A stretch of DNA of 64,000 nt from Escherichia coli. GTDB taxonomy: Bacteria; Pseudomonadota; Gammaproteobacteria; Enterobacterales; Enterobacteriaceae. Location of the stretch: the NCBI RefSeq assembly GCF_030013595.1, contig NZ_CP122768.1; one strand, written 5' to 3'. Shown piece after piece: positions 48,116 through 49,628 of the stretch (position 1 is the stretch's first letter; each line of letters opens with the position of its first letter). Made by a program: the position numbers and the translations under genes. The notes under the pieces were generated by a model. The model did no database searches. It was not told the origin of the DNA and was given only the letters and a program-made list of their open reading frames with translations.

Positions 48116-49628
48116 TACCATTTAACTGAAAGCCACCATAACGTCTTTTTGACTACATTTATGATAATGCGTCTCATTTTGTTTTCGTTTTTTTGTTCAG
48201 GGAAATTTTCCGAACATCAGTGATAATGAGGGTTTTGTTGTTTTTGTTTCTGCAATGTTTGAGGACTGTTCCTGGAGACGATTCGTTGCTTGTGAGCAAG
48301 AGGTGGTCCGCTTTACTGGACAAGTTTTGCATTTGTTGAGTGGTGAAATGGAAGTAAAAAGAGCCCCTTTCTGGCAATGGTTGAAAAAGTCAGTAGCGTG
48401 TGACAGTAAAAGCTAACATAAAGTGATTATCGTATGATTATGACAATGACTTATAACTTTTATGAAAAGAACAACAGAAACTACGAAGCCATAGCAGATT
48501 CCTGAGACCATGTTTTCTGAGGTAGAGAAAATAATTCCAGAGTAAATCTGTTCTGTTTTTAGGACAGAAAACTCCATGCTGGCTGTAAAAGTGAAAAATT
48601 AACACCCAGTATGTATGGAAGTCTGAAGATGTTGAGAATGTCGGTATGATACTATATACACATATTTTACTAAGTATTTTTACTAAGCATTTCAGTAAGT
48701 GTTATACACGTATTTTCATAAACACTTGTAGAAGTGTTTTCGTTAAGCATTGCTATACACATCCAGTTTAGTAAATCTTTACGTTAACTAAATCAGTTTA
48801 ATGCTGCTGTAAAACCTTTCTGCTTCAGCAATCAATCTGCTATTCGATTTTACTGATGTTACGTTTAACCTTTCCTGAGATTTCGAGTTTTGAAGTTAGC
48901 ATGAGAAAAGTATCTTTACGCTAAATCAACCCGAACTTTCCTGAAGTAATCTGACGTTCTTTTCGATGTGCTTACGACGATTCTGTTAAACGACTTTCTG
49001 GATGTTTTGATAACAATCAGATTTAGGCATTAACGATTCCTGACGTTTTTCTTTTCCGTGTAAGGTCATTGTTTTCGTCATGAGGTTTCTTCTTGCATTG
49101 CGAAAGTGTGATGAACGGTTTTGGTGTTTTGATTCAGATGAAGTTTACGTTATCGATGGTTAATCGTTTTTATGGTGCGTAGTGAAACGTAACATTTTCG
49201 GGATGAGAAAATCGATTCTGATGGTGATGGGGATGATCGTGTTACGGCGTTATCTGTAAACAGGTTTTAAACGTGTCATTCGCATTCGTGATTTAGTTGT
49301 GTGATTAAGCTGTAGGTTTTGGCGTTGTTGTTGATTTGCATTGCCAGGAAGCGTTCTGGTTGCGTTTCTGGTGTTTTGTTCGAATGTTCTGTGGATCCTT
49401 TTCCCTTCAGGCTTTTCTCGTCGTCCATGTCGTTTTTAAATCCATTCATGCTGTTGTTGCGTGTTTTGCTGCTGTGTGCAGGATTATCTTTTCGTTCCGG
49501 GATGGTTTGTTCCGTTTCAATCACTCTTAATCAGAGAGTTGTAGCATTGCTCAATGCCGGATGCCGTAAAGTTTTACCGCGTTGATGAATGATGTGAAGT
49601 CAAGCCAAATCAACGGAGATCTCTCATC

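Follow-up and report, generated by a model that had tools for sequence, protein, structure and literature searches.

The DNA analyzed here, a 64,000-nt stretch of Escherichia coli (contig NZ_CP122768.1; hereafter the window), is a CP4/P4-like genomic island that is 100% identical to strain 2009C-3133 over positions 48100-49650, and our subject is the unannotated stretch preceding its gene of the YagK/YfjJ family ("inovirus Gp2"; called the Gp2 gene below). The left module of the island, encoded on the minus strand, comprises a YfjP-like GTPase, a helix-turn-helix (HTH) regulator, DUF905 and DUF932 proteins, an antirestriction protein, a RadC/JAB protein, and a YeeU/CbtA toxin-antitoxin pair. 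It is followed by a 376-aa hypothetical gene on the plus strand (46985-48115), the unannotated stretch, and the Gp2 gene, downstream of which lie a restriction endonuclease gene and then insertion sequence (IS) debris. The unannotated stretch had been described from its letters alone as a 1.5-kb region poor in open reading frames (ORFs), upstream of a frameshifted YagK/YfjJ gene, with two families of degenerate direct repeats that might be an array of protein-binding sites, an origin, a structured RNA, or a decayed gene (the original prediction). What we find is a conserved noncoding module with two short boxes, a copy-variable repeat array that begins at the end of the second box, and a hairpin over the ribosome-binding region of the Gp2 gene (Table 1), which may act in cis to control that gene.

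Table 1. Features in and around the noncoding module upstream of the Gp2 gene, with the divergence of individual segments (positions are those of the window).
Feature	Position	Strand	Basis or remarks
3' flank of the variable 376-aa gene	48116-48526		Alignable only in islands with that gene; outside the conserved module
Box1, ATAATTCCAGAGTAA (also written MTAAYWYCAGAGT)	48531-48545	+	Consensus MTAAYWYCAGAGTRA; left edge of conservation
Box1-box2 spacer with two local hairpins (48549-48572, 48575-48622)	48546-48638	+	Folding
Box2, TGTCGGTATGATACTATATACA	48639-48660	+	Consensus TGTYGG-WWW-RGTAATA, then TATA-rich
Variable-copy AT-rich repeat array	48652-48775	+	TATACAC and TTTTACTAAG units, inverted repeat
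Fast-evolving T-rich spacer with TTTCCTGA-like units	48776-49141	+	Divergence; motif copies not conserved
Exchangeable GT-rich block	49142-49442	+	Composition; replaced in the L014-L017 lineages
Terminator-like hairpin with U-run	49347-49378	+	Between lineages one pair goes from G-C through G-U to A-U (A-C in one case)
Translation-control segment	49572-49632	+	TTTTAC..ATGATGTGAA box, hairpin, upstream ORF
YagK/YfjJ ("inovirus Gp2") HUH-endonuclease-like gene	49629-50360	+	Pfam, PHROG, family alignment
Segment divergence 0.27-0.37	48801-49100		Holds the second "repeat family"
Segment divergence 0.07-0.17	49101-49215		
Segment divergence 0.33-0.42	49216-49290		
Segment divergence 0.32-0.37	49396-49555		
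Segment divergence 0.06-0.09	49556-49628		

The Gp2 protein looks like a rolling-circle Rep or a relaxase-type endonuclease, because it matches Pfam PF11726 (4e-33) and PF23343 REP_ORF2-G2P (2.5e-6) and because an HUH motif (KHYHV; KHYHVLLLLN) and a Y-x-x-K motif (SYLVK) are nearly invariant in the family alignment. Its matches to "replication initiation protein" families in PHROG are weak, and a search of PDB sequences with the Gp2 profile returned no match. In the window the gene is indeed frameshifted, with a run of six A residues at 49842-49847 where 2009C-3133 has seven and encodes an intact 243-aa protein; the shift may be an error of sequencing or a genuine switch that is prone to slippage. 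YagK/YfjJ genes, with those for AlpA, RadC, and integrase, are core genes of a very common class of islands that carry defence or virulence functions (PMC12595487). The homologous loci share a synteny in which the GTPase, DUF932, and antirestriction genes lie on one strand, followed by the intergenic region and then by Gp2, AlpA, and variable defence cargo.

Conservation among the E. coli loci, in an alignment of 11 loci that was later widened to 29 distinct variants (74-100% identity), starts abruptly at 48527 (GAAAAATAATTCCAGAGTAAA) and extends to the ATG of the Gp2 gene. The module so delimited (48527-49628, ~1.1 kb, 27-32% GC) is matched in 1593 of the 5426 complete E. coli genomes and invariably abuts the 5' end of the Gp2 gene; in 412 of these 1593 genomes the match spans 80% or more of the module, with identities of 75-100%, and hardly ever is a gene annotated there. 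Its length is 1072-1212 nt in 27 variants. Left of 48527 the sequence is unrelated, with different genes in different islands, and megablast breakpoints recur at query positions 405-410; the 410 nt at 48116-48526 are therefore part of the variable upstream gene and lie outside the module, so that the 1.5-kb region of the original prediction keeps its ORF-poor character but loses its left part. The longest ORF in 48524-49628 of the window has at most 89 codons, and in all 29 variants both strands are free of ORFs above 95 codons. A 57-aa minus-strand ORF (49276-49449), annotated by PGAP in 2009C-3133, is intact only in the haplotype group of the window and broken in the others. A decayed gene is disfavoured by these data, as no intact ORF is kept in the 29 variants and indel lengths are not multiples of three, in an analysis that did not include a protein-database search of the translated frames.

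Gp2 homologs at 34-60% identity with flanking DNA were available from Brenneria, Providencia, Morganellaceae, Jinshanibacter, viral contigs, and metagenomes, a genome-contig search with a single protein giving only two loci; individual loci are cited below by their handles (L003 and so on). Two short elements, present once each in the window, recur across this set. Box1 scores 17-24 bits with a position weight matrix on the plus strand in ~60 of 77 loci, and minus-strand maxima are 5-13 bits with one exception of 19.8 bits (L102). Compact loci have it at -230 to -400 and E. coli-type loci at -870 to -1970, and the copies in L019 and L063 are almost perfectly palindromic (ATAACTC-NN-GAGTTAT). 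The distance from box1 to box2 falls into clusters of 64, 84-88, 94-100, 108-109, and 129 nt. In the box2 logo, drawn from 22 lineages, nothing is conserved upstream of the consensus and there is thus no conserved -35 element; TGTYGG was the search criterion by which lineages entered the logo and is hence present in all of them. A scan of viral contigs with a gapped box1-box2 pattern gave 120 chance matches, none with the full box1 context, and the phage-collection protein match OR844780 is an unverified 4.5-kb contig without the boxes. In the compact loci the upstream gene is divergent and the boxes fall within 250-450 nt, so the promoter of the Gp2 gene must lie among them, and we therefore read box2 as a promoter core.

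The K-12 homolog bears on this reading. The yagK gene of CP4-6 is preceded by a 271-nt spacer in which box1 (CTAATTGCAGAGTAA) lies at -262 and box2 (TGTTGGATAGGTATTA-TATAAT) at -198. This yagL-yagK spacer was recovered by genomic systematic evolution of ligands by exponential enrichment (SELEX) as a site of the RpoD holoenzyme, with the predicted promoter TTTAGA-16-TATAAT, and is bound by H-NS (PMC3946193); RcdA also selects it (PMC3535384), all of this binding having been seen in vitro. The predicted promoter coincides with box2 and has TGTTGG at -28 to -23. In L087 the hexamers at box2 are TTCACT-17-TATAGT. As a separate observation on the K-12 spacer (L034 5120-5215, minus strand), its box1 consists of two tandem 13-nt copies (TTAATTCCAGAAG, CTAATTGCAGAGT), its box2 is a near-consensus promoter, and a strong hairpin (TACTCTTACT...AGTAAGAGTA) directly follows the -10 element.

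From the linkage of the module to Gp2, its noncoding nature, the family-wide boxes at constrained spacing, the binding of RpoD and H-NS in K-12, and the variable array, we read 48527-49628, with about even confidence, as a cis-acting promoter/operator control region of the YagK/Gp2 HUH gene of the island. In such a region, box1 would be a partly palindromic protein-binding site, and box2, ~100 bp downstream, would be a sigma-70 promoter core with TGTCGG in the upstream spacer, no conserved -35, and an AT-rich -10, at which transcription in the island would start. The TATACAC and TTTTACTAAG repeats would be tandem reiterations of the AT-rich -10 segment, forming a copy-variable array at the start of the transcribed leader, and might provide additional, low-specificity sites through which a DNA-binding protein adjusts promoter output; this could be an AlpA/Xis-type protein of the island, the Rep protein itself, H-NS, or the RNA polymerase sigma factor. 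The remaining ~850 nt would be a GT-rich, C-poor untranslated spacer or leader specific to the E. coli lineage, ending in a hairpin and upstream ORF that may hold the ribosome-binding site of the Rep gene closed. As a sequence feature, the module would then be a fairly ordinary promoter-operator region with degenerate repeats. Several points weigh against this interpretation. The "promoter sequence" in the K-12 SELEX data is a prediction within a binding peak and not a mapped start (PMC3946193). Our consensus promoter scan called box2 in only one of three compact loci (not in L039 or L021) and called none on the plus strand of the window, where the -10 register is ambiguous within a TATA-repetitive segment and the best hexamers, TATGAT and TATACA, are in different registers. 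A leader of ~970 nt would be unusually long. Finally, a significant array is absent from most compact relatives, which makes the repeats dispensable for the core function, and they could be products of slippage.

The first of the two proposed repeat families proved to be real. TATACAC occurs at 48655, 48703, and 48754, always on the plus strand, and these are three of only six copies in the window; interleaved with them are TTTTACTAAG-type units with a period of 12-13 nt spanning 48663-48716 (units at 48665 and 48678 and a degenerate one at 48690), and an inverted repeat, AAACACTT/AAGTGTTT, lies inside the array at 48720-48739. Judged from the window alone, their significance is only borderline: among 300 dinucleotide shuffles, 13 reached three copies of an exact 7-mer within 160 nt, and 4 reached five copies of a 10-mer when two mismatches were allowed. 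Homologous E. coli regions, on the other hand, carry two to seven units and differ by indels of whole units (e.g. 52, 39, and 23 nt), and it is because of these whole-unit indels between lineages that we regard the TATACAC array as a true repeat array. Intervals between units follow no regular period (17-91 nt, mostly 17-53). Box2 ends in the first TATACAC unit (…TGTCGGTATGATACTATATACAC…), and the later units repeat that AT-rich segment, which suggests that the array reiterates the -10 and initially transcribed segment. Other lineages have arrays of unrelated sequence directly after box2, namely a 22-nt unit in three copies (L028), a 36-nt unit in five (L026), AGAGTGTATRGAGAAC in four (L024), and TATGTGTTT in three or four (L019); only the arrays of L003, L026, and L028 beat shuffled sequences, those of L024 and L063 are marginal, and most compact loci have none. 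This recurrence at one position, combined with dispensability, fits accessory binding sites, but also slippage-prone AT-rich DNA. A match by eye of the TATACAC units to the R2 DnaA box of oriC (TTATACACA, 8 of 9 positions) was dropped as a lead, the arrays of the other lineages being unrelated in sequence. In Brenneria corticis (L018 3278-3375) four or five direct repeats, (G/A)ACACATTTTA, spaced at 22-24 nt, lie at the far end of the intergenic region, beside a divergent 323-aa gene and some 360 nt from box1 on its upstream side; their core is that of the TATACACATATTTT units of the window, but the position differs.

The second proposed family, AC(C/G)xTTTCCTGA, did not hold up. Copies of TTYCTGR do occur where they had been placed (at about 48818, 48872, 48938, 48987, and 49037), but they do not exceed chance, since TTCCTGA is found three times in 19 of 300 shuffles and an 8-mer with one mismatch in 101 of 300, and a looser pattern is scattered over the whole window. 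Neither spacing nor sequence is conserved in homologous islands, a comparative outcome that the original prediction itself had named as refuting; copies three to five of the TTTCCTGA motif are absent from the regions of other lineages. This family takes up most of the interval 48600-49100 to which the repeats had originally been assigned. These units probably reflect chance in a fast-evolving T-rich spacer and do not form a true repeat family. Among the functions originally considered, an array of binding sites, a promoter, or an origin is thus supported for the TATACAC family, which stands on a family-wide box2 upstream of a HUH Rep-like gene, and not for the AC(C/G)xTTTCCTGA family.

The spacer itself evolves unevenly. 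Divergence was gauged against the Gp2 gene, for which synonymous divergence (dS) between the lineage of the window and others is 0.13-0.20 and nonsynonymous divergence (dN) 0.04-0.07, and all ranges exclude the near-identical L002 and segments shared with the window through recent recombination. Segments 48801-49100, 49216-49290, and 49396-49555 diverge at least as fast as neutral sites, whereas 48661-48800, the aligned part of the array (0.07-0.14), 49101-49215, and 49556-49628 are slower than dS; 49101-49215 and 49291-49395 form very conserved sub-blocks. The pattern is visibly mosaic, reflecting recombination between a few haplotypes. In lineages L014-L017 (also L097, L099, and L105) the GT-rich block is exchanged for 1.15 kb with a minus-strand gene of 176 aa (L014 2668-3824), and the spacer is therefore modular and tolerant of insertion or exchange. 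This 176-aa gene resembles nothing in the window and carries a frameshift in L016; family searches gave a weak PHROG match ("D5-like transcriptional regulator") and nothing informative. On the sense strand, 48950-49550 is GT-rich and C-poor, with AT skew reaching -0.49 and GC skew +0.43, an asymmetry kept in homologs that may reflect avoidance of Rho on an untranslated leader; a GT-rich sense RNA would presumably be a poor Rho substrate and the antisense RNA a good one.

Such freedom raises the question of whether the repeats do anything. They could be functionless debris of slippage and duplication in an H-NS-silenced AT-rich spacer between the true control elements, with most of the 1.1 kb being neutral filler inherited with the gene. 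The marginal significance within the window, the free drift of copy number between two and seven, the compact relatives that manage with 250-400 nt and no array, the parts of the spacer that outpace synonymous sites, the replaceable middle block, and H-NS binding at the K-12 homolog are all in line with this. We nevertheless consider it unlikely, given that the aligned array and the blocks at 49101-49215, 49291-49395, and 49556-49628 diverge less than Gp2 dS, that no columns of the array alignment are better conserved than the TATACAC cores, that arrays arose independently in several lineages at one fixed position with respect to box2, and that overall length is held within a narrow range.

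A Rep-like neighbour also raises the question of an origin. HUH enzymes need a specific cis site, usually beside their own gene. The region could be a rolling-circle-type or transfer origin for the HUH protein, with box2 (TGTCGG/TATAGTAATATA) as the nick region, box1 as a Rep-binding palindrome, and the TATACAC array as iterons or an AT-rich enhancer, the excised island being nicked and replicated here; this could coexist with a promoter, and we regard it as somewhat unlikely. The HUH and Y-x-x-K motifs of the adjoining Gp2, its PF23343 match, and its weak matches to replication initiators in PHROG would suit an initiator, and a weak Gp2 homolog is annotated as a replication initiator in a 5.3-kb virus record. 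A family-invariant core flanked by lineage-specific direct-repeat arrays mirrors a conserved nick site with co-evolving iterons, the region is AT-rich, and the elements have a fixed orientation on the sense strand of the gene. Box2 variants such as TAGTATTAT resemble the TAGTATTAC nonanucleotide. The repeats themselves do not behave as iterons, for which at least three direct repeats of 17-22 bp at a regular spacing of ~22 bp are expected: their cores are ~7-16 nt, in one orientation and irregularly spaced, and regular tandem arrays of 22 and 36 nt occur only in other lineages (L028 and L026). Arrays are, moreover, absent from most compact relatives, and the box2 homolog of K-12 behaves as an RNA polymerase binding site. 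No hairpin is conserved around or before box2; in the window the plus strand between box1 and box2 folds at -25 kcal/mol (z = -3.05), but across 22 lineages the mean z is ~0. The phage collection holds no match to the module, and among plasmid records there are two matches at 99-100%, unannotated at the match, and a third, partial one; the one inspected is a sparsely annotated IncF record and not an excised island. No nicking or replication activity of YagK/YfjJ proteins is reported in the literature searched. An oriT-like arrangement of recognition hairpin and nick between box1 and box2, suggested by the z of about -3 and by GC/GU/AU changes seen by eye, was set aside when the hairpin turned out not to be general across the 22 lineages.

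The structured-RNA option fared poorly. A permissive Rfam 15 covariance search (E to 10) returned noise only, the best hits in 46500-51000 reaching at most 21 bits against gathering thresholds of 35-84, and sliding-window RNAalifold on 13 diverse E. coli variants gave, on both strands, a structure conservation index of at most 0.62 and no consistent z-score signal, which disfavours a large structured RNA. The immunity leader of phage P4 contains repeated elements (seqA/B/C) that base-pair among themselves, and the region might by analogy be a long noncoding or structured RNA, or a small RNA with targets, whose repeats act at the RNA level. The islands are P4-like (AlpA and DUF3987/YfjI neighbours), the G/U-rich plus strand has by far the better fold of the two strands, a degree of compensatory change is seen in local hairpins, and the hairpin at the ribosome-binding site is itself an RNA-level element. 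We nonetheless hold such an RNA to be highly improbable: besides the Rfam and RNAalifold results, the repeat units vary by whole-unit indels and not by paired changes, and no conserved complementarity was found between them.

Local structure at the start of the Gp2 gene is a different matter. A hairpin at 49589-49630, which every one of the 14 E. coli variants is predicted to form, overlies the interval between the Shine-Dalgarno (SD) sequence (GGAG, 49615-49618) and the ATG, and a 15-codon upstream ORF (49585-49632) ends in a TGA that overlaps the Gp2 start codon (ATGA); this ORF is not conserved outside E. coli. Distant lineages have hairpins in which the SD sequence itself is the 3' arm, formed with different arms (CTCCAGT/ACTGGAG, CTTCAGTAATT/AATTACTGGAG, TCCGTATG/CATACGGA), and across 33 lineages the mean pairing probability of the SD sequence is 0.76, versus 0.61 after shuffling of the upstream sequence (Fisher p = 0.0018). 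The SD-occluding hairpins of distant homologs are preceded by a conserved TTTTTAC...TATGAA/GATGTGAA box.

A further lead concerns a possible activator. The HTH regulator of the left module, a YfjR-like protein of 226 aa (45033-45713, minus strand), combines HTH_11 and WYL domains in the architecture of PafBC, DriD, BrxR, and CapW, activators and repressors that sense single-stranded DNA. Mycobacterial PafBC recognizes tGTCgg(N10)tA(N3)T, with a GTC element at -28 to -23 in promoters without a -35 (PMC8635444), and the half-site GTCGTAT of Caulobacter DriD occupies the -35 position of promoters that likewise lack this element (PMC13004042). By analogy, box2, with TGTCGG at -28 to -23, no -35, and a -10 ten bases further on, might be a gammaproteobacterial WYL-activator promoter at which an island-encoded HTH-WYL protein such as this one, sensing single-stranded DNA produced by DNA damage or phage, would induce the HUH Rep-like gene together with that of the excision activator AlpA, with box1, box2, and the repeats also serving as the origin of Rep. 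We think this improbable; against it, SELEX with K-12 YfjR recovered the operon of YfjR itself as the sole target, and chromatin immunoprecipitation with exonuclease digestion gave no signal for this protein. Should it be true, these widespread defence-carrying islands would excise and amplify on infection.

Other observations concern the island at large. Just 3' of Gp2(-AlpA) there is a hotspot for defence cargo in L021, L023, L024, L026, L006, and L009, whose content differs by lineage (NACHT, KAP NTPase/QatB, TIR, type I restriction-modification, Cap4 nuclease, MADS, and restriction endonuclease). A second YagK/YfjJ paralog in the window (55978-56544), ~21% identical to the first, is preceded by ~1.15 kb of gene-less AT-rich DNA (stretch 54825-56544) in which no box1 or box2 was found in sense orientation, the sole similarity being ACCAGAGTAAAAAAT on the opposite strand at -434. 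An H-NS-family paralog (53327-53767, plus strand) lies a few kilobases downstream of the AT-rich control region, amid IS256, IS21, and IS3 fragments, and a very large ORF of 3806 codons spans 16133-27553 on the plus strand. An analogy with the AlpA antiterminator of Pseudomonas aeruginosa was abandoned; that protein contacts DNA through residues 128-142, has a fold like that of phage 21 Q, and appears unrelated to the AlpA-family proteins of 70-80 aa in the islands.

The features now defined upstream of YagK/YfjJ genes (a pair of conserved cis boxes, a repeat array of variable copy number, and a ribosome-binding site predicted to be closed by a hairpin) provide concrete targets for asking whether the encoded proteins initiate replication, act as relaxases, or do something else, and what triggers induction of the islands.

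Several known systems offer comparisons. Fold-back inhibition in IS10 and leader-peptide coupling in tap-repA of R1 and repY-repZ of ColIb-P9 insulate transposase or rep genes at the level of translation. The translation-control segment of the module is reminiscent of these in its hairpin over the ribosome-binding region of a Rep-like gene and its short upstream ORF ending in ATGA on the start codon, although the ORF is confined to the E. coli lineage and no antisense RNA was identified. Among HUH and rolling-circle origins, the Ff intergenic region lies upstream of gene II, the double-strand origin of the pMV158 type contains direct repeats, and geminiviruses combine iterons with a TAATATTAC loop. 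The module resembles such origins as a noncoding block on the sense strand upstream of a Rep-like HUH gene, in which a short, invariant core has AT-rich DNA at its flank and, next to it, direct repeats that differ between lineages, whereas it has no conserved stem-loop to present the core, and its repeats are irregular and missing from most relatives. The likeness to PafBC and DriD promoters lies in TGTCGG(T/A)AT of box2 at the same position without a conserved -35, and an exact N10-TAnnnT after TGTYGG is found in K-12 yagK and L087 only; the phylum differs, the N10 hexamer lacks the final T in many lineages and is TATACA in the window, and K-12 RNA polymerase binds the box2 site without an activator. 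The yagK spacer of K-12, by comparison, is short, without a TATACAC array or an 850-nt GT-rich leader, and has a tandemly duplicated box1, and the YagK protein is only distantly related to Gp2 of the window (the second paralog of which is ~21% identical to the first); yet the spacer, like the window, has both boxes ahead of a YagK/YfjJ-family gene, with their order and orientation unchanged.

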